Notes: a model not told the origin generated them from the sequence alone. Numbered from the stretch's first letter, positions 3,158 through 59,298 are shown. The stretch: 64,000 bases of DNA from Candidatus Multivoradales bacterium (GCA_965223855.1 CBDCXM010000009.1:864001-928000); one strand, 5' to 3'. Numbers and translations are program-made.

Positions 3158-6100
3158 ATGAGATCAGCCTTCCCGACGTCCTGTGTCCGAGCGTTGTGGG
3201 TGGGAGCCACGATGATGGTGCTGCTCGCTTCGGCAGTTGCCGCCGAGCCGCCCTCGCCGCCGCCCTACTACGCGATCACGAACGTCACCGTCGCCACCGG
3301 CGACGGCCGCACCCTCGAAGGAGCCACGGTGCTGGTGGCCGACGGCCTGATCGAGGCGGTTGGCAGCAGCGTCTCCGTGCCGGGCGACGCCTGGACGATC
3401 GACGGCAGCGGGCTCTACCTCTACCCCGGCCTGATCGACGGCATGTCGACGCTCGGCCAGGCCTCCGGTGGCGGCGAGTCGGACGACGACTCGGGCGGCA
3501 ACCCCTTCGCCTCCGACGGCCCGGAGATCCGCGGCCCCGAGGACCGGCCGAAGACGACCCCGTGGGTCAGCGCCGCCGATCTGCTTGGCGACGACAGCCG
3601 GGTCGAGAAGTGGCGCGACGCCGGTTTCACCGCGGCGATGTCGGTGCCGGAGAGCGGCATTTTCGGCGGCAGCGCGAGCCTGGTGCACCTGGGCGACGTC
3701 GAGCCGCGCGAGCGGGTAGTGGCGACCGGGCTCGCTCAGCGAGTGGCGCTCGAGACCGGCGGCTTCCGCAACTATCCCGGCTCGCTGATGGGGGTCATCT
3801 CCTATGTGCGGCAGGTGCTCTCCGACGCCGACCACTATGCCCAGGCGAGCGCCGCCTACGAGCGCGCTCCGGCGGGCCGCAAGCGCCCTGAGTACGACCG
3901 CACGCTCGAGCCTCTGGTGACGGCGCGAGCCGCCGGCGTGCGCTTCCTGCTGCCGGCCGACAACGGCCAGGAGATCGATCGGGCGCTGGCGATCGGCAGC
4001 GACTACGACCTGTCGACCGTGATCTACGGCGCCCGCGGCGCCTACGCCCGGACCGGGCGCCTCGAAAACGCCGGTGTCGCCGTGCTGGTCAGCCCCGACT
4101 GGCCCGAGGAGGAGAAGGACCGCGACCCGGATGCCGACACCGACTTCCGCGACTACTACCACCGGCGGATGGCGCCGACGACCCCCGCCGCGCTCGCCGA
4201 GGCGGGCGTCGACTTCGCCTTCTACTCGCACGGCATCGCCGGCTCCGACGCCTTCTTCGAGGGGGTGCGCGCGGCGATCGAAGCCGGCCTGTCGGAGGAC
4301 GACGCCCTGGCGGCGCTGACCTCCGCGCCGGCCAAGATCTTCGGCGTCGGCGACCGGGTCGGCACCGTCGAGCGCGGCAAGATCGCCAACCTGGTGCTCG
4401 CGACCGGCCCGCTGTGGGCCGAGGACACCGAGATCGAGGCGGTGTTCGTCGATGGCCGGAAGTATCAGGAGCGCGAGAGCGAGGAGCCGACCGAGGCCCC
4501 CGAGGGCGACGCTTCAGGGACCTGGTCGCTGGCCCTCGTGACGCCCGGCGGTACGCGCGACATGACCGCCGAGCTCGAGATGGACGACGAGGGCAAGGTG
4601 ACCGGTGAGCTCTCGAGCGAGATGGGCTCGAGCTCGGTCGACGACGGCCGGCTCTCCGGCACCCAGCTGCGCTTCAAGACGACGCGCGAGATGGCGGGTC
4701 GCAGCATGGAGGCGTCGTTCTCGATGGAGCTCGACGGCGACACGCTCTCCGGCACGATGAGCGCCGGCCCGATGGCGATGGATATCTCCGGCGAGCGCAC
4801 CGCGCAGGCGGCCGACGCGAGCGAGGAGGGCGACGACGAGGCCGCGGCGGACGACGTCTCCCTCGCCGAGCTCGCCGAAGCGATGGAGGTCTACCAGGGG
4901 CCGGTCAGGAAGCTCGACACCTTCGCGATCATGAACGCCCGCATCTACACCGTGACGGGCGAGACGATCGACAACGGCTCGGTGCTCGTGCGGGACGGCA
5001 AGATCGCCGCGGTGGGTCTCGAGCTGCGGCTGCCGAGCGACGTCGAGATCTTCGACGCCGCGGGCGGGTCGCTCGTCCCCGGGATCTTCGACGCCCATGC
5101 TCACATCGCCGTCGACGGCAGCGTCAACGAAGGGTCGCTCGCGGTGACGTCGATGGTCGGTACCGGTGACGTGATCGACCCCGACGACATCGCGATCTAC
5201 CGCGCGCTCGCCGGCGGGGTGACGACCGCCAACATCCTCCACGGCTCCGCCAACCCGATCGGCGGCCGCAACCAGCTCATCAAGCTGCGCTGGGGAATGG
5301 ACGCCGAGGGAATGAAGTTCGCCGGCGCCCCCAAGGGGATCAAGTTCGCTCTCGGTGAGAATCCGAAGCGCTCGAACTTTCGCTCGCCGGCGATTCCGCA
5401 GCGCTACCCGCAGACCCGGATGGGCGTGATCGACGTCATCCGGCGCGCCTTCACCGAGGCGAAGGCCTATCAGGCCGAGTGGCAGGAGTGGGAGGCAACG
5501 CCGGCAGGGAAGCGCGGTGTCGCCCCGCGGCGCGACTTCAAGCTCGAGGCGCTGGTCGAGATCCTCGAGGGCGAGAGGCTGGTGCACTCGCACAGCTACC
5601 GCGCCGACGAGATCCTGCAGCTGATCCGCCTTGCCGAGGAGTTCGGCTTCACCGTCGCGACCTTCCAGCACGTGCTCGAGGGCTACAAGGTGGCCGACGA
5701 GCTGGCTGCTCACGGCGCCGGCGCTTCGACCTTCTCCGACTGGTGGGGCTACAAGGTCGAGGCCTACGACGCCATCCCCCACAACGCGGCGCTGATGACC
5801 GAGCGCGGCGTGGTCGTGTCGATCAACTCCGACAGCGGTGAGGAGATGCGCCACCTCAACCAGGAGGCGGCGAAGGCGGTCAAGTGGGGCGGCATGAGCG
5901 AGGTCGAGGCGTTGAAGCTCGTGACGCTCAACCCGGCGATCCAGTTCGGCGTCGACGACCGGATCGGCTCGATCGAGGTCGGCAAGGATGCCGACCTGGT
6001 GCTCTACGACGGCCCGCCGCTGTCGATCTCCTCTGTGGTGCAGAAGACCTTCGTCGACGGCGACCTCTACTTCGACATCGACGCCGATCGTGAGCGCCAG

Positions 6101-6256
6101 GCGCTGATCGACGAGCTCGAAGAGCGCCTCGGCGGCGGTGACGAAGAGGAGACGGACGAAGAAGAGGGTGAAGGCTCCGAAGAGGAGGAGGTCAAGGCAC
6201 CCGACCCGCCGGAAACGATCGCGCTCGAGGCCGGGCGCTCGGAGGAGGTGAGCTGA
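3158..6256 (+). CDS. Secreted double-domain amidohydrolase family protein
   Basis: Signal peptide from ATG 3158. Two amidohydrolase modules (YPGLIDG...GTVERGKIANLV and PGIFDAHAH...HSYRADE...HVLEGY...INSD...GSIEVGKDADLV) separated by a beta-rich linker domain. Confidence 0.88.
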   Translation: MRSAFPTSCVRALWVGATMMVLLASAVAAEPPSPPPYYAITNVTVATGDGRTLEGATVLVADGLIEAVGSSVSVPGDAWTIDGSGLYLYPGLIDGMSTLGQASGGGESDDDSGGNPFASDGPEIRGPEDRPKTTPWVSAADLLGDDSRVEKWRDAGFTAAMSVPESGIFGGSASLVHLGDVEPRERVVATGLAQRVALETGGFRNYPGSLMGVISYVRQVLSDADHYAQASAAYERAPAGRKRPEYDRTLEPLVTARAAGVRFLLPADNGQEIDRALAIGSDYDLSTVIYGARGAYARTGRLENAGVAVLVSPDWPEEEKDRDPDADTDFRDYYHRRMAPTTPAALAEAGVDFAFYSHGIAGSDAFFEGVRAAIEAGLSEDDALAALTSAPAKIFGVGDRVGTVERGKIANLVLATGPLWAEDTEIEAVFVDGRKYQERESEEPTEAPEGDASGTWSLALVTPGGTRDMTAELEMDDEGKVTGELSSEMGSSSVDDGRLSGTQLRFKTTREMAGRSMEASFSMELDGDTLSGTMSAGPMAMDISGERTAQAADASEEGDDEAAADDVSLAELAEAMEVYQGPVRKLDTFAIMNARIYTVTGETIDNGSVLVRDGKIAAVGLELRLPSDVEIFDAAGGSLVPGIFDAHAHIAVDGSVNEGSLAVTSMVGTGDVIDPDDIAIYRALAGGVTTANILHGSANPIGGRNQLIKLRWGMDAEGMKFAGAPKGIKFALGENPKRSNFRSPAIPQRYPQTRMGVIDVIRRAFTEAKAYQAEWQEWEATPAGKRGVAPRRDFKLEALVEILEGERLVHSHSYRADEILQLIRLAEEFGFTVATFQHVLEGYKVADELAAHGAGASTFSDWWGYKVEAYDAIPHNAALMTERGVVVSINSDSGEEMRHLNQEAAKAVKWGGMSEVEALKLVTLNPAIQFGVDDRIGSIEVGKDADLVLYDGPPLSISSVVQKTFVDGDLYFDIDADRERQALIDELEERLGGGDEEETDEEEGEGSEEEEVKAPDPPETIALEAGRSEEVS

Positions 6257-7560
6257 TGCGCCGCAACCGGAATCTGATTCTTGCCCTCGCCGTCGTCGCG
6301 GCATCGACGCCCTTTGCCGGAGCCGAGAGCCTCGCCATCACCGGCGGCACCGTCCATCCGGTCTCGGGCGAGTCGTTCGTCGGTACCGTGGTGATCGAAG
6401 ACGGCGTCATCGCCGCCGCCGGAGCCGATCTCGACGTCGTGACCGACGCCACGATCGACGCGACCGGTCTCCACGTCTATCCCGGGCTCTTCGACGCCTT
6501 CAGCCAGCTCGGTCTGGTGGAGGTCAACGCGGTCGCGGCGACCGACGACCAGGCGGAGATGGGGACCTACAACCCGCACCTGCGCGCCGCCACGGCGATC
6601 CACCCGGCGAGCCGGGTCCTCGGCGTGACCCGCGCCAACGGCATCACCCACTCGGTGGTCGCACCGCAGGCCGACGGCGACGGCGTCATCTCCGGTCAGG
6701 CGGTGCTGGTGAACCTCGACGGCTGGACGGTCGAGGAGATGACCGTCGAGCCCGACGTCGCAATGATCGTCTACTGGCCCGAGATCCAGACCCGCAGCTT
6801 CGACTTCTCCACCTTCAGCGTGCGCGAAACGCCGTTCGCAGAGGCGAAGGAGAAGGCGGAAGAGCAGGCCAACGAGCTGCGCGACTGGCTCGACGCCGCG
6901 CGCCACTACCACGCGGCCTCGACGGCCGACGGCAGTCGCGTCGAGCGCAATCTCGAGCTCGAGGCGCTCGCCGGCGTCCTCGATGGCGCTCAGAAAGTGC
7001 TCATCATGGCCGACGCCGAGCGTGACATCGAAGCGGCGGTCGAGTTCGCCGAAGAGCAGGGGCTCTCGATGATCCTCGGCGGCGGGCGCGACGCCTGGAA
7101 GGTGAAGGAGATGCTGGCCGAGAAGGGCATCGGCGTCGTGCTCGGCCTCACCCAGAGCCTGCCGAACAACGAGGACGACCCGTACGACCGGCCGTTCAGG
7201 AACCCCGGCCTGCTGGCCGAGGCGGGCGTCACCATCGCCTTCACCTCCGGCGCCGGCGGCGGCTTCGGCCCCGGCGGCCCCCACCAGTCGCGCACCACCC
7301 CGTACGAGGCCGGCACGGCCGCCGCCTACGGGCTCGACCGCGAGGCGGCCATCCGGGCGCTGACCCTCGGCCCGGCCGAGATCTACGGCGTCGCCGACCG
7401 CCTCGGCTCGATCGAACCGGGCAAGATCGCCAATCTCATCGTCACCGACGGCGATCCGCTGGAGATCACGACACAGGTCTTGCACCTGGTGATCGGCGGC
7501 CAGGAGGTCTCGACCGACAACTACCACCGCGACCTCTACGAGACCTATCGCGGGCGGTGA
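6256..7560 (+). CDS. Secreted amidohydrolase family protein, probably metal-site-degenerate partner subunit
   Basis: TGATG coupling to the upstream gene. Signal peptide, YPGLFDAFSQLGL (no HxH), GSIEPGKIANLIVTDGDPL. Confidence 0.85.
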   Translation: MRRNRNLILALAVVAASTPFAGAESLAITGGTVHPVSGESFVGTVVIEDGVIAAAGADLDVVTDATIDATGLHVYPGLFDAFSQLGLVEVNAVAATDDQAEMGTYNPHLRAATAIHPASRVLGVTRANGITHSVVAPQADGDGVISGQAVLVNLDGWTVEEMTVEPDVAMIVYWPEIQTRSFDFSTFSVRETPFAEAKEKAEEQANELRDWLDAARHYHAASTADGSRVERNLELEALAGVLDGAQKVLIMADAERDIEAAVEFAEEQGLSMILGGGRDAWKVKEMLAEKGIGVVLGLTQSLPNNEDDPYDRPFRNPGLLAEAGVTIAFTSGAGGGFGPGGPHQSRTTPYEAGTAAAYGLDREAAIRALTLGPAEIYGVADRLGSIEPGKIANLIVTDGDPLEITTQVLHLVIGGQEVSTDNYHRDLYETYRGR

Positions 7561-7567
7561 CACGGCG

Positions 7568-9091
7568 GTGAGTCGGTCCGGCAGCTCGGGAGAGGGGCCG
7601 GATCGGCCATTGCCTTCGAGCCAGGTACCGGCACGCCCCGGCGTCGCCCTCCGGCTCGGGGCGGCGCTCGTGCTGCTGCCGCTGGCCGTCCTCGTCCTGC
7701 TGGTCGCCCTCGACTGGCCGGCCGGGGACGGCGCCACCGAGGGCGATCACGCCCTGATCGAGCTGTCGGTCCGCGAAGCGGCGGCCGGCCGGCAGTGGAC
7801 CGGCGCCTACTCCCGCTGGGGTTGGGACCACCCGGGGCCGCTGTGGTTCTACCTGATGGTGCCCCTCTACCTCGCAACGGGAGGCTCCTCGTGGGGGCTG
7901 GCGCTCGGAGCGGCACTGCTCAACCTGCTTTGTGCGGCATTTCTCGTGGCCGTCGCGCTGCGGCGTTGCGGGAACGGGCTTGGCGGTTGGTTGGCGCTGT
8001 TCGTGCTGGCGCTCTTCTTCGCCGCCTTTCAGACGTACCACCCACCGCTGTCACTGATCTCGATCTGGAACCCGGTGGTCGCCGTTCTGCCGCTCGGAGC
8101 GTTGCTGGCGCTGGCGCTCCTTGGATCGGGCGGCCGCTGGGAGCTCTACACAGCGGTGGCGCTCCACGCCGTCGTCTGTCAGTCGCATGTGTCGCTGGTG
8201 GCTGTCGCGACAGTGGCGTTGCTGGCGGTGGGCGCCAGGGAGATTGGGGTTGCCAGGGACCGGATGCGACAGCTCGTCGGACCCGCACTGGCGATAGTGG
8301 CGCTCTGGTCGCTGCCGCTCCTGGACCTCCTCATCGGTCAACGCAACCTGATCGATCTTGCGCGCTTCCTGCTGGCGCCGCCCTACGAGGCGATCGGCCT
8401 CTCCCGGGCGATCGCCGAGGGGTCGGTCGCCTTTTCGCGACCGCTCTGGTTCCCGTTCGTCGAGCAGGCGCCGGCGTGGCTGGCTGGTCTCCTGAGCGCG
8501 GTCGTCGTTCCGTTCGTGATCTCGCGTTTCCGCTCGGGGGGTCGCCATGCCCGCGCGGCTCGGTTGTCGCTGCTACTCCTGGTCGTTGCCGCCGTCACTC
8601 TCGCGCGCGGCGACGCCGGCAACCTCTCTCACACGCGGTGGCTGCCGATGCTGACGACGCTCCTGCTGCTGGTCTCGTGTGCCGGCCTGACCGGACCGCG
8701 ACCTCGGCCCGTCGTGCGCTGGATCGGCATGATCGTGCTCTCAACGCTGGCCGTCTGGCAGCTCCTCTTCGTGGAGCCGCGTCTCGAGCGGATCCGCGAG
8801 ACGGTCGAGACGAAGCACAAGCGCTACGAGGATGTCGTCGCCGAACTCGGCGAGGAGGCCCTCGGCAGCGAGGTGCTCAGCACTTCGGGTTCGATGAACC
8901 GGCGCTTTCCCGGACTCGTCCTTGCGCTCTCGAAGCGGGGCGTCGCCGTGACGGTAGACGACTCGTGGGAAGCACAGTTCGGTCGTGCAGTGGCATACGG
9001 ACCTACCGCGACTCTGCAGGTGGAAGAGCTGCCGCTCGAGAGCCAGCCTCTGGCGGGCCGACAAGGGCTCTGGCTTTACCTGGTGCGGTAG
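7568..9091 (+). CDS. Polytopic membrane protein, GT-C fold glycosyltransferase-like
   Basis: About 10 hydrophobic segments. GD..LIEL and DHPGPLWFYL loop motifs, WNP and QSH motifs as in GT-C-like membrane proteins. Confidence 0.55.
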   Translation: MSRSGSSGEGPDRPLPSSQVPARPGVALRLGAALVLLPLAVLVLLVALDWPAGDGATEGDHALIELSVREAAAGRQWTGAYSRWGWDHPGPLWFYLMVPLYLATGGSSWGLALGAALLNLLCAAFLVAVALRRCGNGLGGWLALFVLALFFAAFQTYHPPLSLISIWNPVVAVLPLGALLALALLGSGGRWELYTAVALHAVVCQSHVSLVAVATVALLAVGAREIGVARDRMRQLVGPALAIVALWSLPLLDLLIGQRNLIDLARFLLAPPYEAIGLSRAIAEGSVAFSRPLWFPFVEQAPAWLAGLLSAVVVPFVISRFRSGGRHARAARLSLLLLVVAAVTLARGDAGNLSHTRWLPMLTTLLLLVSCAGLTGPRPRPVVRWIGMIVLSTLAVWQLLFVEPRLERIRETVETKHKRYEDVVAELGEEALGSEVLSTSGSMNRRFPGLVLALSKRGVAVTVDDSWEAQFGRAVAYGPTATLQVEELPLESQPLAGRQGLWLYLVR

Positions 9092-9174
9092 CGGATCGAG
9101 GCGCTCCGGAGCCCGGCTGCGGTGCTACCTTATGTTCCTGTTTCAAGGCGCCGACACTCCTATGGAGACCCTGC

Positions 9175-12100
9175 ATGTCCGCTGACCGAGATCTGATGCG
9201 CGTCCTCGATGCGTTGCGCGAGCTGTCGACGTCGGAGCTCGACAAGGGGCATCGCTTCGAGCGCCTGATGCTGGGCTTCCTGCGGGTTGCGCCGCAGTGG
9301 GCGACGAAGTTCTCGCACGTCTGGCTGTGGCAGGACTGGCCGGGGAACGGCGGCAAGGTCGATACCGGTATCGATCTGGTGGCCGAGCACGCCGACGGCT
9401 CGGGTCTGACGGCGATCCAATGCAAGTTCTTCGACGCTGCGAGCTCGCTGACACTCAAGGAGACCGGCACCTTCTTTGCGGCCTCCGAAGGGGCTCCGTT
9501 CACCGAGCGCATGCTGATCGCCACCACTTCGAAGTGGTCGGGGCATCTGCTCGACGCGATCGAGAAGCACGACAAGCCCACCGTCCGCCTCACCCTTCCC
9601 GATCTGGCCGACTCCGGCGTCGACTGGAGCGCCTGGAAGGACGACGGCTCGACCCCACTCCAACGCTGCACCCGCAAGCCGCTGCCGCATCAGGTGACGG
9701 CGATCGACAGGGTCCTCGCCGGCTTCGAGCAGCACGACCGCGGCCAGCTCATCATGGCGTGCGGTACCGGCAAGACCTTCGCCGGGCAGGTGATCGCCGA
9801 GCGGCTGGTGGGGAGCGATGGTTTGGTGCTGGTCCTGCTGCCGTCGATCTCGCTGCTGTCGCAGACGGTCAAGGAGTGGGCGGCGTGGTCGTCGCTGCCG
9901 CTGACGCCTTTCGCGGTCTGCTCCGACACCCGGGCTGGGGCGAAGGGCGATCAGGAGGACCTGTCGCCGTTCGATCTCGTGGTGCCGGCGACCACTGATC
10001 CGGAGGTGCTGCTCGACAACCTCGGCCGCGCCCCCGAGGGGCATCTGCGGGTGATCTTCTCCACTTACCAGTCCTCGCCGGTGATCTCCGCCGCGCAGGC
10101 TGCCGGGCTCGGCCGCTTCGACCTGGCGATCTGCGACGAGGCCCACCGCACCACCGGCGTGACGCTGGCCGGCGACGAGGACTCGAACTTCACCCGTATC
10201 CACGACGACGAACAGATAGCCGTCGCCCGGCGGCTTTACATGACGGCGACGCCACGTGTCTACAGCGACGGCTCGAAGGCCAAAGCGAGCGCTGAAGACG
10301 CCGTACTGGCGTCGATGGACGACGCGGCCACCTTCGGCCCCGAGTTCCACCGCATCGGTTTCCGCGAGGCGGTCGACCGGGGCCTGCTGACGGACTACAA
10401 AGTACTCGTACTGGCGGTCGACGAGCGGTCAGTCTCGACCGCCTTCCAGGACCTGATCTCGGACGCCGACCACGACCTGCGGCTCGAAGGGGCGGCGCGG
10501 ATGGTCGGCTGCCTCAACGCGCTCACCAAGCGCAACGCCCTCGGCAAAGCGTTCTCTGCGAGCGACACCGTGCCGATGCAGACCGCGCTCGCCTTCCACA
10601 CCACCATCGCCCAGTCGCAGGAGTTCGCGGCGCTCCTGAGTGAGGTTGCCGACCGTTACGACACCATGGTCGAGGACTTCGACGTCGCCGTCGAGGTCGA
10701 CCACGTCGACGGCGGCCACCACGCCCTCGAGCGCGAGGAGAAACTCGCCTGGCTCGCCGCCGACGTCGGCGACGACCGGGTGCGGGTGCTCTCCAACGCC
10801 CGCTGCCTCACCGAGGGGGTCGACGTGCCGACCCTCGACGCGGTGATGTTCCTCGAGCCGCGCAACTCGATGGTCGACGTCATCCAGGCGGTCGGCCGGG
10901 TCATGCGGCGCGACCCGACCGGGCGCAAGAAGCTCGGCTACGTCATCCTGCCGATCGGCATCCCGGCCGGCATCACGCCGGAGGAAGCGCTCGCCGACAA
11001 CCAGACCTACAAGGTGGTCTGGCAGGTGCTCAATGCGCTCCGCTCCCACGACGAGCGCCTGAACGCGGTCATCAACCAGCTCGAGCTCAACCGCGAGAAG
11101 CCGAAGCTCGTCGACATCCTCCCCGGTGGCGTCGGAGCCGTGGCGGGTGTGGCTGAGGACGAGGTGGACGCCTACGGCCGCCAGCTCACCCTCGGCTTCC
11201 CGATCGGCGAGGTCAGCGAGGCGATCTACGCCCAGCTCGTGAAGAAGGTCGGCACCCGCCACTACTGGGAGGACTGGGCGACCGACATCGCCGCCATCGC
11301 GGCGCGCCACGAGACCCGCATCCGCAGCCTGCTCGACGCGGGCGACGGTGACGGAGCGGAAGTGGCGGCGGAGTTCGAGCAGTTCGTCACCGGCCTGCGC
11401 GCCAACCTCAACGACGCCATCTCGACCGACGACGTCATCGGCATGCTCTCGCAGCACCTGATCACCCGCCCGGTGTTCGAGGCGCTGTTCGAGGGCTACG
11501 ACTTCATCGGCTCGAACCCGGTGTCGATCGCCATGCAGGGGATGATCGACCGCCTCGATCACCACAGTCTCGACAAGGAGGCGCGCACCCTCGAGCGTTT
11601 CTATAAGGACGTTCGTTTGCGCGCCGAAGGGATCGACAATGCCGAGGGCAAGCAGCGCATCATCACCGAGCTCTACGAGCGCTTCTTCGCCCGTGCGCTG
11701 CCGAAGACCGCCGATCAGTTGGGCATCGTCTACACCCCGATCGAAGTGGTCGACTTCCTGCTCCACGCCGCGAACGACGCCCTGGAGCGCCATCTCGGCT
11801 GTTCGCTCTCCGACGAAGGGGTCCACGTGCTCGACCCCTTCACCGGCACCGGCACCTTCGTCGTCCGGCTGCTCGAATCGGGGCTCGTCTCGCCGCACGA
11901 CCTGGCGCGCAAGTACGCCAGCGAACTGCACGCCAACGAGATCCTGCTGCTGGCGTACTACATCGCCGCGATCAACATCGAGGCGACCTACCACGACCTG
12001 ACGGCGGGCGCGGGCGACGGCCCGTACCAGGCCTTTCCCGGCATCGTGCTGACGGACACCTTCCAACTGGGCGAGGAGGGCGCCGGCTCCAACCTCGACC

Positions 12101-50841: not shown

Positions 50842-51460
50842 GCCGATGACGGCCACCGGAGAGCTCGAGGTGGTGGAGCTCACCGCTGAGGATGCGCCGC
50901 GTGTCGTCGAGGTGCACTGCGACGCCTTCTTCGACTACCCGACGATGCGCGACGTCCTCGGAGCGGGGGGCGAGTATCCGGAGCGGTTGCGAACCCTGAT
51001 CGCGCTTTTCATCGACGGCACGCTGCTGCGCGGCGGAGTGCTGCTGGGCGCCGTCAGCGGAGACGACCTGGTCGGTGCCGCCGATCTCGTGCCGTCCGAA
51101 GCCGACGCTACCGGCCTCGAGGAGCGCCGTCGCCGGGCGTGGGAGAGTCTCGGTGAAGGGGCGCGCCGTCGCTACGAGGACTATTCGAGGATCACCGCGC
51201 CGTTCGAGCCGTCGCGCCCACATCTCTATCTGAGCATGCTGGGTGTCCGTCGCGCCGCGACCGGGCGCGGCGTCGCCGGGCGGCTGCTCGAAGCGGCGCA
51301 CCGACGCTCCCTCGAGGACCCGCGCTCCGAAGGGGTGGCTCTGGAGACCGAGGATCCGGACAACGTTTCGTTCTACGAACACTTCGGTTACCGGCGGGTG
51401 GGCTACGGCAGGACGTCGAGCGGTCTCGAGTCCTGGGGGTTCTTCCGGCCCGACCCCTGA
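50834..51460 (+). CDS. GNAT family N-acetyltransferase
   Basis: HLYLSMLGV, GRGVAGRLL, LET, NVSFYEHFGY. Confidence 0.88.
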   Translation: MDEPMTATGELEVVELTAEDAPRVVEVHCDAFFDYPTMRDVLGAGGEYPERLRTLIALFIDGTLLRGGVLLGAVSGDDLVGAADLVPSEADATGLEERRRRAWESLGEGARRRYEDYSRITAPFEPSRPHLYLSMLGVRRAATGRGVAGRLLEAAHRRSLEDPRSEGVALETEDPDNVSFYEHFGYRRVGYGRTSSGLESWGFFRPDP

Positions 51461-51483
51461 GCGCCCCCGTGGATCGACAGGGC

Positions 51484-52809
51484 TCAGCCGACGGGATCGC
51501 CGGAAAGCCAGTCGCTGAGGAGCTCGAGGACCCGCGGGTCGCGGTAGGGCGCGCTGTGGCGCAGCGACGCGTCGTCACCGCCGTCGGGCGCCAGTAGCGA
51601 CACGCTCCACTCGCCGGGAGGGGTCGCCTCGATCGAGACGTCGAGAAAGAGATTGCCGAAGGCGATTCGAGGGCCGAACGGGACGATCAGGACCAGGGAG
51701 AGGAGAAGAGCGAGCGGGAAGGCGAGCGCGCTTCCCAGATAGACCAGGAGTGTCGAGACGATCGGGGTGGCCCGCAGGAGAAGGAACGCAACCCCGCCGA
51801 GTCCCACGGTCTTGCCGACGTCGACGGTCGTTCCGGCGTCGAGCCACCAGGCGAGCCCCCAGATCGGCAAGCCGATCGCCGCGGCCACTGCCGCGACAAC
51901 GGTGGCTCGCGACGCACCGCGCGAGCTGTGGCGCTCGGCTGCCGCCGTCTCCATCGCGCCGAGGCGAGCGAAGATCCGGGCGGTGAGCGCGGCGGCGAAC
52001 TGGCCGGCGAGAAGGCCGGCGGAAGCCTCGTCGCCGACCATCCGCACGATCCGCAGCTTGCCCTGGAGCCGGTCGGCGGCGAGGTCGAGGCGGGTGACGA
52101 GCCTGCCGAGTCGCTGGTGCCACCAGGCGAGCGATGCGAGGGCGGCACCGAAACCAACCATGGCGATCAGCGCCGTCCACCATGGGGCGTCGAGGTGATC
52201 GAGCACGCCGTAGGCGACGAGCAGCAGGGGCAGCGGTGCGAGGATCGCGAAGCGGGCCGGGCCACCGACCAGATCGCGGCGGGAGAGTTGCAGGAAGGGA
52301 GTGGCGAGGCAGGTCACGGTCGAGACCCGGTCGCGGAGTGGCGCGAGCGCTCCGGCAACCTCGCGCTGCTCGTCGTCGGCGAGTCCTTCCGAGCGTCTGC
52401 GTAGCGAGGCATAGCGCTCGTCGTTGAGCGCGTAGAGAGCAACGTTCCCGCCGTGCGAGTGAGCGATCAGATGGTGTTGCGCCGTCGGCCATCGATCGAG
52501 CTGCTCGGCGAGCACCGCCCGAAGCTCGTTGGCGGCACGGAGCCGTGCCTCGAGGGTGTTGCCGCCGGACCAGACGAGACGGCGCAGCGCGGTGCTCTGT
52601 GATCCCAGCTTCTCGACGACGGAGCGCGAGAGGGTGGACTCGGCAGCCGTCCACGCCGCGGATCGGGCGAAGGTCCCGTGAATCAGGACGACGACATGCT
52701 CGGGTCGTTCGCATTCGAGGAGCTCTTCGACCTTGCACGGACGCCGTTCGATCCACAGGCTCCACAGCACGAGCGCGACGACCGCCACGGCGGCGATGGC
52801 AGCGAACAT
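51484..52809 (-). CDS. Membrane-embedded lipase-like alpha/beta hydrolase
   Basis: ATG 52809 after GGAG (alternative GTG 52815). N-terminal TM, LIHGTFA, WSGGN...R..AA..L, IAHSHGGN, LATPF, GDEA, terminal HS..Y. Internal TM hairpins. Confidence 0.8.
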   Translation of the reverse strand: MFAAIAAVAVVALVLWSLWIERRPCKVEELLECERPEHVVVLIHGTFARSAAWTAAESTLSRSVVEKLGSQSTALRRLVWSGGNTLEARLRAANELRAVLAEQLDRWPTAQHHLIAHSHGGNVALYALNDERYASLRRRSEGLADDEQREVAGALAPLRDRVSTVTCLATPFLQLSRRDLVGGPARFAILAPLPLLLVAYGVLDHLDAPWWTALIAMVGFGAALASLAWWHQRLGRLVTRLDLAADRLQGKLRIVRMVGDEASAGLLAGQFAAALTARIFARLGAMETAAAERHSSRGASRATVVAAVAAAIGLPIWGLAWWLDAGTTVDVGKTVGLGGVAFLLLRATPIVSTLLVYLGSALAFPLALLLSLVLIVPFGPRIAFGNLFLDVSIEATPPGEWSVSLLAPDGGDDASLRHSAPYRDPRVLELLSDWLSGDPVG

Positions 52810-52829
52810 CGACACTCCGGTCTCGCGTT

Positions 52830-53777
52830 CTACTGTTTGTAGTTGCGCAGGAAGTACTCGAAGCCGCTCTGCACCCGGCCGAGCGCGTCGGTGGCGTCGT
52901 TGAGACTCGACTCGGTCTCGGCGGTGCTGGCGTCGAAGTTCCGCAGCGCTCCCTCGACCGCCTGAGTCGAGCCGTCGATCTCGTCCCGCAACCCGGCGAG
53001 CTTCTGCGCGACGGTCTGCGAGGCCTCGGCGCGCGCGGAGAGCGCCTGCTCGTGGAGCGTCTCCGCCTCGGTGCGGGTGTTGTCGAAGTTGGTCTGCGAA
53101 TTCTCGATCGCCGCCTCGAGAGTCTCGATCACCAGCTGCTCGATCTCGCCCGCCTTGGCGGCGAAGTCCTCGCTCGCCTCGGTCACGCGCCCCGAGGCTT
53201 CGCTCTCGAGGCTCGCGGCGACCTGATCGCCTTGCCCCTCGAGAGTCCCGGTCGCTTCGTCGAGCTCGGTGAGCAGGGTCTCGCCGTACTGCTCGCGGGC
53301 GCTGTCGAGCGCCTGGGTGGCGCCGGCCGCCAGGCCGCTGAACTGCTCCGCGAGTGCGGTCTGCACTGTCTCGATCTCGTCCAACTGGGCTCTCACCGCG
53401 GCCGCCGCTTCCTCGAGGGCGCTTCCCTCGTCGCCCAGCGCTGCGACTTCGGCCTCCGCCTGTCCTGCGACGGTCTGTTCCAGAGTCGACAGCGCGTTCG
53501 CCGCGTCGGACAGGGCGCCGAGCGCCTGCTCGAGCTCGGTCGCCAGCCGACTCTGCTCTCCGGCCAGCCAGGTGACGAGGCCGGTCGCCTCCTCTTCCAG
53601 CTTCGCCCAGCCGTCCTCGACCTGCGCGGTCGCCTCCTCCGAGGCGGTCTCGAGCGCGTCGAAGGTCGCGTCGATCTCGGTCGCCGCGCCCTCGATCTCC
53701 TCGAGTGCATTGACCAGCTCGCCGCTCGAGGCGGAGAGCTCATCGACGAGCTGGTCGGCCTGGTCCGCACCGGCCAT
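52830..53777 (-). CDS. Acidic helical/coiled-coil protein P4 (315 aa), unknown function
   Basis: ATG 53777 shares a base with the upstream TGA (TGATG). Ala/Glu-rich with periodic hydrophobics. No signal peptide or TM. Confidence 0.78.
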   Translation of the reverse strand: MAGADQADQLVDELSASSGELVNALEEIEGAATEIDATFDALETASEEATAQVEDGWAKLEEEATGLVTWLAGEQSRLATELEQALGALSDAANALSTLEQTVAGQAEAEVAALGDEGSALEEAAAAVRAQLDEIETVQTALAEQFSGLAAGATQALDSAREQYGETLLTELDEATGTLEGQGDQVAASLESEASGRVTEASEDFAAKAGEIEQLVIETLEAAIENSQTNFDNTRTEAETLHEQALSARAEASQTVAQKLAGLRDEIDGSTQAVEGALRNFDASTAETESSLNDATDALGRVQSGFEYFLRNYKQ

Positions 53778-54697
53778 CAGATGCCGAGCTCCCTGGCGAT
53801 GTGAACGACGGTGTCCGCGAGTTCCTTGCCGCCTTCCGAGAGGCTCTTGACACCCTCGAAGAGCGCATCGAGCTGGTCCGCGGCACCGGTGGAGTGGGAC
53901 TCGACTTCCTTGAGGCGGCCCTCGAGCTGCTGCACCCGCTCCGGTACCGAGGCGGCCTCCTGCGCCACCGGTTGCTCGATCTCGGAGGTCAGTCGCTCGT
54001 CGGCGGCGTCGCGCGCCTCGTCGGCCCATTCGCGCATCTGCTCGGCCAGTCCCACGAGCTCGCGGCCGTGCTCCGTGGCCGCGTTCGAGACCTGGGTGAG
54101 GGCCGACTGCGCCGCTTCAGAGATATGAGCCGTCGCTTCGGCCATCTGACCGGCGAGCGCCGCGGCGGCGGCGGTGACGACCCCGGTGGCCGCGTCGCCG
54201 CCGTCACCGTGGCTGCCGGCGCCGGCGGAGCAGTTCGAGCCGGCTTCGCCTGCCGCCGCTTCTCCTTCCTCGATCGCACTCGTCGCCTCTCCCGTCGCCG
54301 CTTCGACGCTTGCTGCCGAGGCGCCCACGGCCTGAGGCGCCGACTCGAGAACTCCGTCCAGGGATTCTCCCGTCGCCACGGTCTGGCGGTTGGCGGTGGA
54401 GAGAGTCTCGGCGTTTTCGGCAACCGATTCCTCGGCGCCGGCTGCGGCCGAGGCGACCGCTTCACCCTGCTGCTCGAGCGTGGTGGTGGCGGTGGCGCCG
54501 AACTCACCGAGCGCCGCGAGCGCCTGGTCGAGCTGGGCCGTGGTGCCGGGAACTTTGCCGGTGAGCTTCTGCACCGTCGCGAGGCGCTGGGCCAGCGTGC
54601 GCTGGAGTGCGGTGCCGCGACGGGTGAGCTCCTGCAGCTGTTGCGGGACGCTCTCGAGGAGCTCCTCCAACCGGTCGTGTCCACCGAACATCGCCAT
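53777..54697 (-). CDS. Acidic helical/coiled-coil protein P3 (306 aa), unknown function
   Basis: Starts 6 nt after the upstream TAG with a purine-rich RBS. Ala/Glu/Gln-rich helical sequence. Confidence 0.78.
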   Translation of the reverse strand: MAMFGGHDRLEELLESVPQQLQELTRRGTALQRTLAQRLATVQKLTGKVPGTTAQLDQALAALGEFGATATTTLEQQGEAVASAAAGAEESVAENAETLSTANRQTVATGESLDGVLESAPQAVGASAASVEAATGEATSAIEEGEAAAGEAGSNCSAGAGSHGDGGDAATGVVTAAAAALAGQMAEATAHISEAAQSALTQVSNAATEHGRELVGLAEQMREWADEARDAADERLTSEIEQPVAQEAASVPERVQQLEGRLKEVESHSTGAADQLDALFEGVKSLSEGGKELADTVVHIARELGI

Positions 54698-54703
54698 GAC
54701 CCT

Positions 54704-55654
54704 CTACTCCCCCACCGCGTCGATCCGCTGTTTGGCCTGATGGCCGCGGTCGATGTCGTCGGCCGAGCCCGAGAAGTCGGCCGTTCGGCTGCTCCACCCC
54801 TCTGCGGCGTCGAGCACCTTGCCGAGCCCGTCCTCCGCCGCGACCATCGCGTCGCCCTGCAGCCGCTCACACGGCTCTCGAAGTTGCGTGTCGGCCGTCT
54901 CGATCAGGCTCTGAACGACCCGGCCGGCCGCCGTGGTGATCCCCTCGAGCAACGACTGGCGGGCGGCGTCGGCCTCTCCACCCCAGGTCGAGTAGGTCTC
55001 ACCGAGAGCCGAGGAGAGCCCTTCCGCCTCGCTCTCGCACTCGCCCCCGACTCCCTCGAGTTCGCTGCCGGCGGACTGCCCGGCTTCGGCCAGCGCCTCC
55101 GCTCCGTCGGAGGCGAGCGTAGAGGCCGCTGAGTCGAGTGCGGCTGCCGCCGTCTCCAGGGCGCTCGCGACCTCCTGCCCGGTTGCCTCGCTGCGTGAGG
55201 AGGCGCCCGACAGCGCGGCGGAGAGTGAAGAGGCATGAGTCGCGTCGGCCGCCGCGGCGTCGGTCAGCGATGCCGTGACCTGCTCGAAACTCTGCCCGAG
55301 CCGGGTCGTGAGCTGCGCCAGCGCCTCGGTCTCGGTGCTGACGGTCGTCGCGGCGCCGTCGGCGGCCGCCTCGACTTTGCCGCTCCCCTCCGAGCAGCCG
55401 GCGTCCCCCTCCTGCGCCGCGGCGGTGGCGCCTTCGAGACTGCCGACCGTCTCGGGCAGCGCGGCATCGAGGGAACCGTCGAGCTCGGCGACGGCATCGG
55501 AGAAGGCGGTGAACCCTTCGAGCACCTGCTGCTGGGACTCTTCGGCCCAGGTGAGGAGGCTGTCGACCAGCGCGAGGCTCTTCTCGTTGCGGGCGCGCGC
55601 GCTGGCGAACATCCGGGTCAGCTTGGCCAGGCCGGAGGGGTTGACGTCGCTCAT
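54704..55654 (-). CDS. Acidic helical/coiled-coil protein P2 (316 aa), unknown function
   Basis: ATGA overlap with P1. Ala/Glu/Ser-rich helical sequence. Confidence 0.78.
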   Translation of the reverse strand: MSDVNPSGLAKLTRMFASARARNEKSLALVDSLLTWAEESQQQVLEGFTAFSDAVAELDGSLDAALPETVGSLEGATAAAQEGDAGCSEGSGKVEAAADGAATTVSTETEALAQLTTRLGQSFEQVTASLTDAAAADATHASSLSAALSGASSRSEATGQEVASALETAAAALDSAASTLASDGAEALAEAGQSAGSELEGVGGECESEAEGLSSALGETYSTWGGEADAARQSLLEGITTAAGRVVQSLIETADTQLREPCERLQGDAMVAAEDGLGKVLDAAEGWSSRTADFSGSADDIDRGHQAKQRIDAVGE

Positions 55655-56550
55655 CCGGGCACCTTCGAGGCCGTGCTGCTGATCTCGGACTGCAGGCCGC
55701 CGATCGCTTCGGCGAGCCCCTCCGTGAGTTCCGTGACTCTGGGTGCCGCCGACTGCAGCGACTGAAGCTGTTGCTCCTGCACGGCGCCGACGCCGTCGAG
55801 GACCTCGCCGACGGTCTCGAGCTCTCCATCGAGTGCCTCCGGAGCGTCGACTGCCAGCCCCTGCCAGAGCCCCTCCATGACCTCGTTGTGCTGCTCGACC
55901 ATGGCGTTGCCCGCGTCGATCAGCGATCTCCCGAGGTGGCGCACCAGCTCACCACCGGCGCTGGCGAACTCGGTGCTGTGCTGTGCCCCCTCGCGGGCGA
56001 CATCGGACAGCGCCTCGGCCCACGAGGATCGAGCCGTCAGCAGGCTCTGGTGAGCCGTGCCGGCCGTCTCGACGGCGGCGGAGAGGGCGGACTGCAACGC
56101 CTCGATTCCGGCGTTGCCTTCGGCGACGGCTGCCTGTGCGGCGGCAGCGACCTCGGTTGCCGCCTCCGCTGCTGCCGACAACGAGCTGCCGCGCTCCTCG
56201 CCGAGCTCCCGGCGGGCCTCGGAGAGCTGCTCGAGTTGCGGCGTCAGCTCCTCGAGGGACGTGCGGGCCGTCGCCGCCAGGGCGGAAGCCTCCGCGGTCA
56301 GCTCCGACAGCGCTTCGTGAAGGCCGCCCGTCGCCGTCTCGCCGGCGGCGCGAGCGGCCGCGACCTGCTCGAGCGCCTGCTCGATCGACGCCTGCGCGGT
56401 CTGCGCTTCGGCTTCGATCGCCGCGACGAGATCCTCGCTGCGGCCCAGAAGCTCCTGGACCGGAGCGCGGGCCGCTTCGCAGCGCTGCTCGAGCTCCCGG
56501 CAGCTCGAGACGGCCTCCTCCAACCGGTCGATGATGACGGGCTGTGCCAT
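55651..56550 (-). CDS. Acidic helical/coiled-coil protein P1 (299 aa), unknown function
   Basis: First gene of the operon. TAGAAT at 56568-56563 upstream. Ala/Glu-rich helical sequence. Confidence 0.78.
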   Translation of the reverse strand: MAQPVIIDRLEEAVSSCRELEQRCEAARAPVQELLGRSEDLVAAIEAEAQTAQASIEQALEQVAAARAAGETATGGLHEALSELTAEASALAATARTSLEELTPQLEQLSEARRELGEERGSSLSAAAEAATEVAAAAQAAVAEGNAGIEALQSALSAAVETAGTAHQSLLTARSSWAEALSDVAREGAQHSTEFASAGGELVRHLGRSLIDAGNAMVEQHNEVMEGLWQGLAVDAPEALDGELETVGEVLDGVGAVQEQQLQSLQSAAPRVTELTEGLAEAIGGLQSEISSTASKVPG

Positions 56551-56671
56551 GACGGTGAGGGGATTCTAGTCCTCCGGCACGGTCGACTCCATGACGACTC
56601 GCACAGTCTTGGGCGCGGCTTTCACGCACGGCGTTACAGGGCGCCTGGACCGGAGGGATAGAATTCGGGCA

Positions 56672-57784
56672 ATGACTCCTGCGAGGTGGCTCGCGACGCC
56701 GGTTCTCGGCGCCCTGTGTCTGATGCTGACCACGCCCGGCTGCGCGCCGCCGGCGAAGAACGGCGAGCCCGGCAATGGGAGTGATTCGCCCGGGAGTTCC
56801 GAGCCGGACTACGCCGTCGTCCGTGTTCTCTACGGCACCGATCGCGACGACACCGGAGCGGATCATCCGCGCGACAAGTACGGTGTCGCGCGCGGTGACG
56901 GAATCTCGTGGGGTCAGTGCGAGGTCAGCATCCCGCGGGACCATCGGATGGGAGAGCTGGAGGAGCCGTCGATCTGGCGCCTCGAGTTCCGCGAGGACCC
57001 GGAGAAGCACGTCGTCCTGCTCGACGGGGTGCGCTACGACCGTGACGAGTTCGTCGCGGCGCTCGCCGGCGCGACCGAGAGCTCCCGGAACCGGTCGGTG
57101 CTCGTCTTCGTCCACGGCTACAACGTCACCTTCGAGGACGCGGCGCGACGCACCGCCCAACTGAAGTACGACCTCGGGTTCGGCGGCGCCGCGACCTTCT
57201 TCTCGTGGCCGTCGAACGGCTCGAAGGCTGCCTATGCGGCGGACGAAGCCGACATCCAGTGGTCGACGCCCCACATCCGGGAGTTTCTCGAGACGGTGGC
57301 GACGGCCGACGGGGTGGGTGAAGTGTTCGTCGTCGCCCACAGCATGGGCAACCGGGGGGTCACTCGCGCGCTCATCGATCTCGAGCCCGAAGCGCGGAGC
57401 CGGATCCGGGAGGTCGTCCTCACGGCGCCGGACATCGACGCCGACGTCTTCGTTCGCGACCTGCTGCCGCGTCTCGGCGCGGAGGGGAGTCGCCTGACCC
57501 TCTACGCGTCGTCGAACGATCTGGCGCTGCAGGCCTCGAAGCGGTTGCATCAGGGGCGCCGGGCGGGCGAGGCCGGGCCGGAGTTGATCGTGGCCGAGGG
57601 GCTCGACACCATCGACGCCTCGAGCGTCGAGACTTCGTTTCTCGGTCACTCCTACTTCGCCGAGGAGCGCTCCCTGCTGTCCGACCTCTATTACCTGCTC
57701 ACCACCGGCAGCGCACCCGACGAGCGTGCCGGCCTCGAGCGCGAGGAGCTCGCCGGGCAGCCCTACTGGCGTTTTCGCGACTAA
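56672..57784 (+). CDS. DUF900 family alpha/beta hydrolase lipoprotein
   Basis: VLYGTDR, VSIPRDH, VFVHGYN, FSWPS, AHSMGN, APDID, YASSND.AL, GHSYF. TAGAAT lies 7 nt before ATG 56672. Confidence 0.9.
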   Translation: MTPARWLATPVLGALCLMLTTPGCAPPAKNGEPGNGSDSPGSSEPDYAVVRVLYGTDRDDTGADHPRDKYGVARGDGISWGQCEVSIPRDHRMGELEEPSIWRLEFREDPEKHVVLLDGVRYDRDEFVAALAGATESSRNRSVLVFVHGYNVTFEDAARRTAQLKYDLGFGGAATFFSWPSNGSKAAYAADEADIQWSTPHIREFLETVATADGVGEVFVVAHSMGNRGVTRALIDLEPEARSRIREVVLTAPDIDADVFVRDLLPRLGAEGSRLTLYASSNDLALQASKRLHQGRRAGEAGPELIVAEGLDTIDASSVETSFLGHSYFAEERSLLSDLYYLLTTGSAPDERAGLEREELAGQPYWRFRD

Positions 57785-57822: not shown

Positions 57823-59298
57823 ATGAGACGAACGGTGACGATCCTGCTGGGCCTGTGGCTCGCTTCTGCTGCCGGTGCGGCGCCTGCCGAATCGACCCGG
57901 CGCGAGGGCCCCGAACCTGTCCGGATCCTGCGTGAGCGCGCCAACCTTCCGGCTGCCGTGATCGAGTCGGGCTCGGGCACCTTCCCCTCGCCGGAGCTGC
58001 TGTTCTCGATGGTGGGCGCCGACAACGCGCCCACCGTGCGCGCTCTTCCCGACGTCACCGGCGACGGTGTCGCCGAGGTGCTGGTGGGGATCGACGAGTC
58101 GGGCACCGACAACCTGTTCTGCCTCGACGGGACGTCCGCCGGAGCCTCGCCAACGGTCGTCTGGAGCCTCGAAACGATGGACGGCGTCTCCGGCGGGTCG
58201 CCCTGGAGCGAGGAGTCGCTCTCCGTCGGCTCCGACCAGGACGACGACGGCTCGCCGAATCTCTACTTCGGCACCGCCTGGGGCGGTCGCACCGCCTACT
58301 CGATCAACGGTGACGACGGCGAGATCGTCTGGCGCTTCGACACCTACGACAGCCCCGACTCCGGCTGGATCTATTCGCTGGCGGAGATCGGGGACGTGAC
58401 CGGCGACGGAGTACCGGAGACCGCTTTCGCCAGCGGCTCCGACAGCGACCGGCTCTACCTGGTCGACGGGGCCAGCAGCGGTGAGCCGGCGACGATCGTC
58501 TGGACCTATCTCGCGGCTGACGCGGTCGGCTCGGTGCGCAATCTCGGCGACGCCGACGACGACGGGTTCGACGACGTCGTCGCGGCGGTGTGGGACAACG
58601 GCGATCTGGTGGTCGCGCTGAGCGGCGCGACCACGGCGCCCGGAGGCGACGTGCTTTGGACCCGCCCGATCGGACTGACCCCGCAGTCGCTCGGCGTGAT
58701 CCCCGATCTCGACGGCGACGGCGTCGACGAGGTGCTGGCCGCGGTGTGGGCGACCGACGGCAGCTCGGTGCGCTGTCTCGACGGCGAGAGCGGCAACGAA
58801 GTGTGGCGTACGACCACCGTCGGTGGGCCCGGGATGGCGGTCGATCTCCTCGACGACATCACGGGCGACGGTGTCCCCGAGGTGATCGTCTCGTCGTGGG
58901 ACAACGCGGTCACCGTCGTCGACGGCAGCGACGGCAGCCAGGTGTGGAAGACCTTCGTCGGCACGACCAACGGCGGCGACGTGTGGACGGCGCGCGCGAT
59001 CGGCGACCTCGACGGCGACGGGCAGGAGGACGTCGTCGCCGGTTCGTTCGATTACCACGTCTACGCGATGAGCGGCGACGACGGCGACATCCTGTGGGCC
59101 TACTTCACCGCGAACCGAGTCTTCAGCGTGCACCCGATCGACGACCTCGACGGCGACGGCGCTCCCGACGTCGTCGCCGGGACCCAGGACACCCAGAACA
59201 ACGTCGTGCTCCACGTCCTGAGCGGCGGCGCCGGGCCGATCTTCGTCGACGGGTTCGAGTCGGGCGACACGAGCGCCTGGCCTTCGACCGTGCCCTGA
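57823..59298 (+). CDS. Secreted FG-GAP/PQQ-repeat beta-propeller with IFVDGFESGD tail
   Basis: GGAGG RBS, signal peptide, about 8 DxxGDGxxD/E Ca-binding repeats. Confidence 0.85.
   Translation: MRRTVTILLGLWLASAAGAAPAESTRREGPEPVRILRERANLPAAVIESGSGTFPSPELLFSMVGADNAPTVRALPDVTGDGVAEVLVGIDESGTDNLFCLDGTSAGASPTVVWSLETMDGVSGGSPWSEESLSVGSDQDDDGSPNLYFGTAWGGRTAYSINGDDGEIVWRFDTYDSPDSGWIYSLAEIGDVTGDGVPETAFASGSDSDRLYLVDGASSGEPATIVWTYLAADAVGSVRNLGDADDDGFDDVVAAVWDNGDLVVALSGATTAPGGDVLWTRPIGLTPQSLGVIPDLDGDGVDEVLAAVWATDGSSVRCLDGESGNEVWRTTTVGGPGMAVDLLDDITGDGVPEVIVSSWDNAVTVVDGSDGSQVWKTFVGTTNGGDVWTARAIGDLDGDGQEDVVAGSFDYHVYAMSGDDGDILWAYFTANRVFSVHPIDDLDGDGAPDVVAGTQDTQNNVVLHVLSGGAGPIFVDGFESGDTSAWPSTVP

Follow-up and report, generated by a model that had tools for sequence, protein, structure and literature searches.

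Polymorphic toxin systems are normally classed by the route on which the toxin leaves the cell. In its passages on trafficking, the survey of Zhang et al. 2012 (PMC3482391) has rows for the type V, VI and VII secretion systems (T5SS, T6SS, T7SS), PVC, PrsW and MuF, and its toxin tables mark type II (T2SS) tags. For T7SSb, excerpts of two reports (10.1101/2022.07.06.499029; 10.1101/2023.07.21.550046) describe how the helical targeting factors Lap1 and Lap2 make LXG toxins export-competent. Here we analysed a stretch of 64,000 nucleotides from Candidatus Multivoradales bacterium (GCA_965223855.1, CBDCXM010000009.1:864001-928000), called the window in the following. It contains four consecutive genes for acidic helical proteins, P1 to P4, which are followed by a gene for a lipase-like membrane hydrolase, P5. 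The four helical genes belong to a conserved cassette, which may be an undescribed helical module within a polymorphic toxin system. Our best explanation, which we regard as an even call, is that P1-P4 are the window copy of a four-gene carrier or adaptor cassette of a polymorphic toxin system of Acidobacteriota and that the lipase-like enzyme sits in its toxin slot.

Comparison with described systems

The cassette resembles the LXG/Lap arrangement in that all-helical proteins are co-encoded beside polymorphic antibacterial toxins and immunity genes. As far as the excerpts go, the partners there are small, whereas the cassette encodes four helical proteins of about 300 amino acids (aa), and the toxins there are LXG-domain fusions, whereas those of the cassette loci are separate proteins with a short Pro-rich tag. 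In addition, no EssC was found in five carriers of the cassette, and the hosts are judged to be Acidobacteriota. With the survey (PMC3482391) the loci share toxin and immunity families, namely AHH, WHH, Gln_amidase, PT-TG, Imm35, SUKH and SUFU, encoded behind a conserved module. The trafficking modes in the passages of that work considered here, however, include no four-gene helical cassette, and the toxins of the cassette loci are not fused to the trafficking domains listed there. By analogy, the system would work like a polymorphic toxin system with helper proteins. In the open-access literature we found no description of such a four-gene cassette, though one may exist in print elsewhere.

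Multi-component pore toxins of the ClyA family (Hbl/Nhe, XaxAB/YaxAB, Ahl/Smh and Mak) consist of several tandem-encoded helical proteins of 300-400 aa. P1-P4 differ from them in having neither hydrophobic inserting segments nor signal peptides nor a family match over cut-off. The cytoplasmic part of chemoreceptors (2ch7) is likewise acidic, about 300 residues long and rich in Ala, Glu, Ser and Thr, and it forms an antiparallel hairpin of two helices. In contrast to chemoreceptors, P1-P4 have no transmembrane (TM) or HAMP parts and gave no MCPsignal match in Pfam at E values up to 1.

The four helical genes form a conserved ordered cassette

A preliminary description of the window, made from its sequence, had proposed a five-gene operon of four paralogous helical proteins and a lipase-like enzyme. 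The gene arrangement it gave was recovered: five open reading frames (ORFs) with coding-type codon bias (G+C content at third codon positions 0.81-0.88) lie on the minus strand (Table 1). P1 and P2 are joined by an ATGA overlap in which the P2 start lies on the P1 stop, P2 and P3 are separated by a gap of 6 nt, and P3 and P4 share a TGATG overlap. P5 begins 14 nt after the P4 stop if the GTG is used. From an alternative ATG at 52809, which has a GGAG upstream, the distance is 20 nt and the product has 441 aa, which is the form in the database record. The hexamer TAGAAT that had been taken for the -10 element of a common promoter is indeed present 12 nt before the P1 ATG, but a promoter scan of 51000-57000 gave 0 promoter-like sites, so that the promoter is at most putative. 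Sequencing runs listed for this DNA include none of RNA, and the DNA runs all stem from one study. In agreement with the earlier characterization, P1-P4 are rich in Ala (20-21%) and Glu (10-15%), with net charges of -31 to -53, and contain no TM-like segment, the maximum 19-residue Kyte-Doolittle mean being at most 1.11.

In the following, G000 denotes the genome of the window, G002 is a genome of the same genus, G001 a further genome, and G330 belongs to another family of the phylum. Q1-Q4 are the four positional families of the cassette, numbered by gene order. The link to these families was provided by P4. A phmmer search with P4 against 1.84 billion representatives returned its own cluster and a single further match (E 6.7e-4), and this protein heads a tight Q4 family of 91 proteins, most of them 305-308 aa long. 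With the Q4 alignment A1, P4 gave an hhalign probability of 95.8% (E 6.8e-9), while P1-P3 did not match. The remaining proteins found their counterparts by phmmer at the corresponding positions: P1 matched Q1 ORFs of metagenome loci (E 1e-14 and 2e-14) in alignments that run end to end and nearly gapless, P2 matched the Q2 of G330 (E 1e-6), and P3 the Q3 of locus L036 (E 2e-5); P4 also matched the Q4 of locus L012 (E 6e-11). There were a few weaker cross-position matches, e.g. of P2 to a Q4 at 5e-5. Judged from these matches, P1-P4 are each orthologous by position to Q1-Q4. Between orthologues of the same genus, identity is 44-47% for P1, 40-42% for P2, 41-44% for P3, and 40-47% for P1-P4 overall. 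A sigma-54-type regulator neighbouring P1-P5 has dozens of paralogues at 36-48% identity and provided no same-genus divergence baseline. Because this baseline failed, we do not claim that the cassette evolves unusually fast.

The order of the four genes is preserved. In the G330 locus, four helical genes stand in a row and encode proteins of 295, 321, about 310 and 304 aa. A metagenome scan yielded 31 loci, in 22 of which a Q3-like ORF lies directly upstream of Q4; the upstream DNA of the remaining nine does not exceed 320 nt. Q2 and Q1 were present in these loci wherever the contig was long enough. Among 20 loci from 8 genomes of the family of G330, 17 are complete and read Q1-Q2-Q3-Q4, two are interrupted by contig ends, and one reads Q1-Q4-Q2-Q3 by best match to the hidden Markov models (HMMs). 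One locus contains two complete cassettes in tandem and another a cassette followed by an extra Q1 gene. The conserved tandem array that had been expected thus recurs in metagenome and genome loci alike.

The cassette family occurred in 2 of 401 genomes of a phylum sample. Among 61 relatives of G330, eight carry Q3, with 1-6 matches each, and all eight are among the 37 genomes of family f56. A Q1 match was found in 4 of 81 relatives of G000, namely G000 itself, two genomes of the same genus and G005 (a weak match in a genome flagged unpublished). A scan of genome contigs with the Q4 alignment gave no confirmed relative. The source names of Q3 and Q4 members read "Vicinamibacteria bacterium", a class of Acidobacteriota, and from these names the hosts were judged to be Acidobacteriota. 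G000 is placed there because it shares its phylum with G330. The four acidic helical genes are a conserved, ordered cassette that is multi-copy and patchily distributed.

A variable slot beside the cassette often contains toxin genes

The position after Q4, and sometimes the one before Q1, is a slot in which different loci carry toxin or pre-toxin domains of different families. In G002 an AHH nuclease (PF14412, E 1e-10) lies directly 3' of the P4 orthologue, at the same 14-nt spacing as P5 in the window, and is followed by a 169-aa gene. Because this nuclease and not a hydrolase follows the P4 orthologue of G002, the five-gene operon is not a conserved unit, contrary to what had been proposed. 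Elsewhere the slot holds a Gln_deamidase_2 domain (E 3e-28), a PT-TG domain or, in locus L072, a WHH nuclease with the gene of a SUKH immunity protein behind it. In one locus a Gln_amidase ("papain fold toxin 1") precedes an Imm35 domain that reaches 27.2 of the 27.5 bits required, and the same locus contains another Imm35, which exceeds the cut-off with 40.2 bits. SUFU, an immunity protein, is encoded after a weak Endonuclease_NS-like gene that stays below its cut-off. Apart from this gene and the first Imm35, the domains named here, AHH included, scored over their Pfam cut-offs. A fragment resembling a DUF676 lipase, which is below cut-off, and a DUF2515 domain occupy the slot or the position before Q1. 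The distance from the Q4 stop to the start of the slot gene is 1-70 nt, and the slot genes group into few small families. The cassette loci carry a variable toxin domain at a fixed place beside a conserved module. The earlier idea that the helical proteins serve the downstream enzyme fits these data, since related loci carry polymorphic toxins at that position. In the neighbourhood survey that had been suggested, toxin and immunity domains were found beside the cassettes, and no secretion genes in the loci. When 24 flank proteins were compared with Pfam, 18 had no family, one was toxin-like, and TPR, glycosidase/GDSL or sigma-factor proteins made up the remainder. Repeating the search for 12 of the 24 at laxer settings gave nothing significant.

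Many slot genes begin with a Pro-rich stretch that is followed by an aromatic residue. The pattern Pro-x(0-1)-Pro within the first 14 residues was found in 18 of 28 slot ORFs compared with 36 of 273 other ORFs from the same loci (Fisher p = 9e-9), a value that is an indication and not a proper probability, as the control set includes some spurious ORFs, and that is overstated because the loci are related. In a comparison by eye, the slot genes of G002 open with Leu-rich stretches that end in Trp.

P1-P4 belong to no described family and are predicted to be long helical hairpins

Searches of P1-P4 against Pfam, NCBIfam and PADLOC gave only sub-threshold coiled-coil matches, those in PADLOC being to the ZorA, LmuB and JetC models. 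P1-P4 hence match no curated family in these collections, as had been expected of an undescribed system. When the profiles of the four families were compared with the PDB, only generic matches appeared (designed bundles, apolipoproteins and spike HR1).

The preliminary description had considered P1-P4 to be paralogues aligned in register, and the motifs on which it relied are all present: DRLEE at residues 8-12 and QAL at 58-60 in P1 and P3, L217/E219/W224/E227/A228/A231 at identical positions in P2 and P3, EExxxQVxxG[F/W] in P2 and P4, and WxG as WQG in P1 and WGG in P2. The relationship itself is less clear. All-against-all phmmer and blastp comparisons of P1-P4 gave nothing significant, and profile scores were only modestly above the reversed-sequence control: family-versus-family hhalign scores were 43-72, compared with 39-47 when one family was reversed and 11-20 when its columns were shuffled. 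Full-length in-register pairs were obtained for Q1/Q3 (score 72, reversed 47, 272 columns) and Q2/Q3 (64, reversed 45). Cross-family HMM scores had medians of 5-24 bits, reversed sequences 0-16. For P1 and P3 the identity at offset 0 was 19.1%, the highest value among 161 offsets (11.0 ± 2.4% at the others), but for P2 and P3 it was not above background at this offset (z = 0.9). P3 matched the G002 orthologue of P2 with E 2e-8, out of register. Paralogy in register is thus weakly suggested, and for the P1/P3 pair alone. We read the four proteins as four distinct families of one fold class, probably of distant common origin.

P1-P4 were compared with several known families of helical proteins. 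WXG100/LXG bundles had been named as one possible parallel and WxG motifs noted, but the Trp shows no conservation among the aligned Q1 members and is kept by only one of six other Q2 members. The best scores of WXG100/T7SS profiles were obtained for P2 and remained below the cut-offs (15.7 bits versus 27.3 for PF06013; 16.8 versus 44.85 for TIGR03930), and none of P1-P4 had an LXG or WXG100 Pfam match over cut-off. For the ClyA/Hbl/XaxAB group, Bacillus_HBL scored 11.9 bits versus 29.1 (E 0.19) and NF033928, alpha-xenorhabdolysin A, 14.6 versus 125 (E 0.015); in the PDB profile search XaxA and HlyE appeared at E 0.12-0.95. No hydrophobic head or tongue was found in eight proteins, P1-P4 and their four G330 counterparts, the 19-residue Kyte-Doolittle mean being at most 1.11. 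The earlier argument that a missing tongue speaks against a classical ClyA pore is borne out by this value and by the family profiles. Apolipoprotein profiles were also far from their cut-offs (PF01442, 23.5 versus 90 for P4; PF07464, the ApoLp-III family, 10.9 versus 36.3 for P1), and P1-P4 gave no match to the PspA and phasin families of Pfam at E values up to 1. Taken by these tests, the cassette lies outside the WXG100/T7SS, ClyA-type and apolipoprotein families.

AlphaFold2 models based on the family alignments predict two long helices for P1 (residues 3-122 and 127-295; mean predicted local distance difference test score, pLDDT, 65; predicted template modelling score, pTM, 0.29) and for P4 (2-175 and 180-314; pLDDT 66, pTM 0.34). 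With modest confidence the predicted fold is a giant two-helix hairpin that has no specific fold relative. Foldseek searches with both models gave no match at E ≤ 0.001. The best row for P4 was the chemoreceptor hairpin 2ch7 (E 0.08, TM-score 0.34-0.40), which VIA-align also placed on the P1 model (Z 7.5). These matches are not significant, and at the level of the models the resemblance is one of geometry alone. The top Z of the wide VIA-align comparison, 9.3, lies in a range that is uninformative for long helices. As to the PspA-like polymer considered earlier, a SynPspA rod chain was found at Z 7.8, which is within the background range for long helices. A complex prediction for P2, P3 and P4 scored 0.06; no call was made, and the score has no bearing on binding either way.

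In the ESM Atlas, the nearest entries to P4 were three clusters without a name (297-310 aa, scores 0.87-0.91) that occur most often in Cyanobacteriota and may represent analogous cassettes in another phylum. P1 retrieved nothing useful there.

The hydrolase P5

P5 matches DUF676 in Pfam with 19.1 bits, just under the cut-off of 20.3, and has five TM-like hydrophobic stretches. In an alignment of 30 family members H46-G47-T48, S120 (within AHSHGG) and D262-E263 are invariant, and H420 is conserved in at least 90%. From these residues P5 is predicted to be a bona fide serine alpha/beta-hydrolase with a nucleophile elbow and a conserved Ser/Asp/His triad. Parts of the survey of Zhang et al. 2012 (PMC3482391) count alpha/beta-hydrolases with an HSxG motif among the polymorphic toxins, also for Acidobacteria, and P5 with its AHSHGG is alike. 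Of the 401 genomes in the phylum sample, 3 gave a match to the P5 family, and a scan of genome contigs with P5 gave no confirmed relative. Two family copies may be disrupted: that of L085 (G341:C6) contains two in-frame stops, and that of L086/L087 (G158:C4) matches as two adjacent pieces. By its position P5 occupies the variable slot 3' of the cassette. It may be a cargo toxin, a recruited membrane partner or a chance neighbour.

Possible mode of action and alternative explanations

Long helical hairpins usually bury surfaces through pairing, and for this reason we propose an elongated, hetero-oligomeric bundle of helices built from the four hairpins. Such a bundle would bind, stabilise or escort the toxin encoded in the slot, in many loci through the short Pro-rich N-terminal tag. 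The toxin would then be delivered out of the producer, by analogy with the helical partners that escort LXG toxins. On this view, the toxin slot in the window would have recruited a membrane lipase-like enzyme.

A number of findings weigh against a carrier cassette of this kind. P1-P4 have no signal peptides, and the cassette loci contain no secretion genes. Neither G000 nor G330 yielded TssC, WXG100 (PF06013) or FlhA/SctV. EssC (TIGR03928) was not found in five carrier genomes, each of which gave one FtsK-like partial match of 94-101 bits versus a cut-off of 778, and a phage sheath gene was found in only two of these five. Because the loci hold no export machinery and no markers of T3SS (type III secretion system), T6SS or T7SS were found in the tested carriers, the export step has no known route. 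Most slot genes have no Pfam family, a regular-expression search for tag-bearing ORFs in G000 gave four matches, none of them tag-like by eye, and the confidence of the P1 and P4 models is modest. Further points concern P5. Its N-terminus is a TM helix and has no Pro-rich tag. Immunity genes beside toxins are seen in related loci, but not at P5, where no immunity-like gene follows and the next gene is a convergent GNAT. In G001 the P5 homologue (50% identity) follows a prepilin-like gene on a different contig, and no Q-family ORF was found within 1.5 kb of the P5-family genes of G341 and G158.

The gap at the export step keeps another reading alive, namely an intracellular conflict system (anti-phage or abortive infection) in which the coiled-coil proteins would act as sensors or scaffolds and the enzyme of the slot, be it a nuclease, a deamidase or a lipase, as a suicide effector checked by its immunity protein, with no export involved. 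It would account for the missing signal peptides, for the lack of secretion genes in or near the loci and of secretion markers in the tested carriers, and it suits the patchy, multi-copy distribution and the weak matches to ZorA, LmuB and JetC. These PADLOC matches are, however, low-scoring coiled-coil noise (best 25.8 bits), while the neighbours PT-TG, AHH, WHH, Gln_amidase, Imm35, SUKH and SUFU are classic interbacterial families, and many different slot toxins behind one module form the pattern of exported polymorphic toxins. We consider an intracellular system unlikely. We judge it quite improbable that the four proteins are a multi-component toxin of the ClyA/Hbl/XaxAB type that would insert in a target membrane for pore formation or translocation and carry the enzyme across. 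The co-encoding of several helical proteins of about 300 aa and the faint matches to Bacillus_HBL, alpha-xenorhabdolysin A and XaxA/HlyE point in this direction, but the scores fall well short of the cut-offs, none of the eight proteins contains a hydrophobic head or tongue, signal peptides are lacking, and the models are plain hairpins without a head domain.

A cytoplasmic scaffold, i.e. a filament or a PspA/ESCRT-III-, phasin- or apolipoprotein-like coat to which the neighbours including P5 would be functionally unrelated, would explain the generic matches to apolipoproteins, designed bundles and the PspA rod, as well as the finding that the four-gene core has no other conserved partner. It would leave aside that toxin and immunity genes recur beside the cassette in translational coupling at 1-40 nt, that the slot genes have an N-terminal tag in common, and that the copy number reaches 6 per genome and no cassette was found in most relatives searched. 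Together with the missing PspA and phasin matches in Pfam, this makes a scaffold very unlikely in our view.

The toxin-associated carrier cassette, preferred here, can be taken one step further. The four hairpins could form a carrier that recognises the Pro-rich tag of small stand-alone toxins and takes these from diderm Acidobacteriota into competitors with no known specialised secretion machine encoded nearby, i.e. on an undescribed delivery route. We put this forward tentatively and hold it to be less likely than not. Polymorphic systems being classed by exit route, it matters that no T3SS, T6SS or T7SS markers were found in the tested carriers. Were the helical proteins indeed the carrier, this would be a new mode of arming in abundant and poorly studied soil bacteria and would provide a new pair of short tag and carrier for protein delivery. 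Four protein families and many "hypothetical" slot genes would gain names.

Neighbouring genes and further cassettes

Table 1. Positions of the genes, cassettes and neighbouring features (L numbers denote loci outside the window, except where the window is named)
Feature	Sequence	Position	Strand	Description
P1	window	55651-56550	minus	ORF, 299 aa, acidic all-helical; divergent member of positional family Q1
P2	window	54704-55654	minus	ORF, 316 aa, acidic helical; divergent member of family Q2
P3	window	53777-54697	minus	ORF, 306 aa, acidic helical; divergent member of family Q3
P4	window	52830-53777	minus	ORF, 315 aa, most acidic (net charge -53); divergent member of family Q4
P5	window	51484-52815	minus	putative membrane alpha/beta (serine) hydrolase, 443 aa from GTG
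GNAT gene	window	3' of P5	convergent	flank of P5
DUF900 alpha/beta-hydrolase	window	56591-57784	plus	divergent neighbour 5' of P1; Pfam E 2e-46
FG-GAP or Calx-beta large repeat protein	window	57823-59298	plus	near cassette
FG-GAP or Calx-beta large repeat protein	L058	931-4713		near cassette
FG-GAP or Calx-beta large repeat protein	L060	7650-10562		near cassette
FG-GAP or Calx-beta large repeat protein	L075	15463-18612		near cassette
Second cassette of G000	contig C9 (L075)	2812266-2815174 (8279-11175)		outside the window; Q2-, Q3- and Q4-like genes of 333, 308 and 300 aa, more divergent
Rearranged cassette	L056 (G330)	3537-7329		order Q1-Q4-Q2-Q3
Tandem cassettes	L066	472-8289		two complete cassettes
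Extended cassette	L062	4276-9197		cassette, then extra Q1 gene
TPR protein	L014	2290-4662		within few kb of cassette
TPR protein	L035	2850-4652		within few kb of cassette
TPR protein	L039	258-1526		within few kb of cassette
TPR protein	L055	8247-9866		within few kb of cassette
TPR protein	L072	1345-3534		within few kb of cassette
TPR protein	L057	5855-9046		within few kb of cassette

The divergent DUF900 gene 5' of P1 would encode a lipoprotein-like leader if it started at Met28 (lipobox judged by eye), and with this start the intergenic region toward P1 would measure about 120 nt. In locus L063 a lipase-like gene with a signal peptide and no Pfam family is divergent from Q1. From these two cases, hydrolases recur beside cassettes. 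One of the TPR proteins near a cassette also carries an AAA_16 STAND-type NTPase domain. The nearness of the large FG-GAP or Calx-beta repeat proteins may be due to chance in these genomes.

The second cassette of G000 is situated elsewhere on the contig and directly follows a Decapeptide-repeat protein of 1987 aa. In the orthologous locus of G002 the C-terminus of this protein matches the Q1 profile (E 3e-12), and for this reason Q1 is probably fused to it. Downstream of the second cassette lie a duplicated fragment of Q4 and one gene each for Lcl_C, multi-FHA and Calx-beta proteins.

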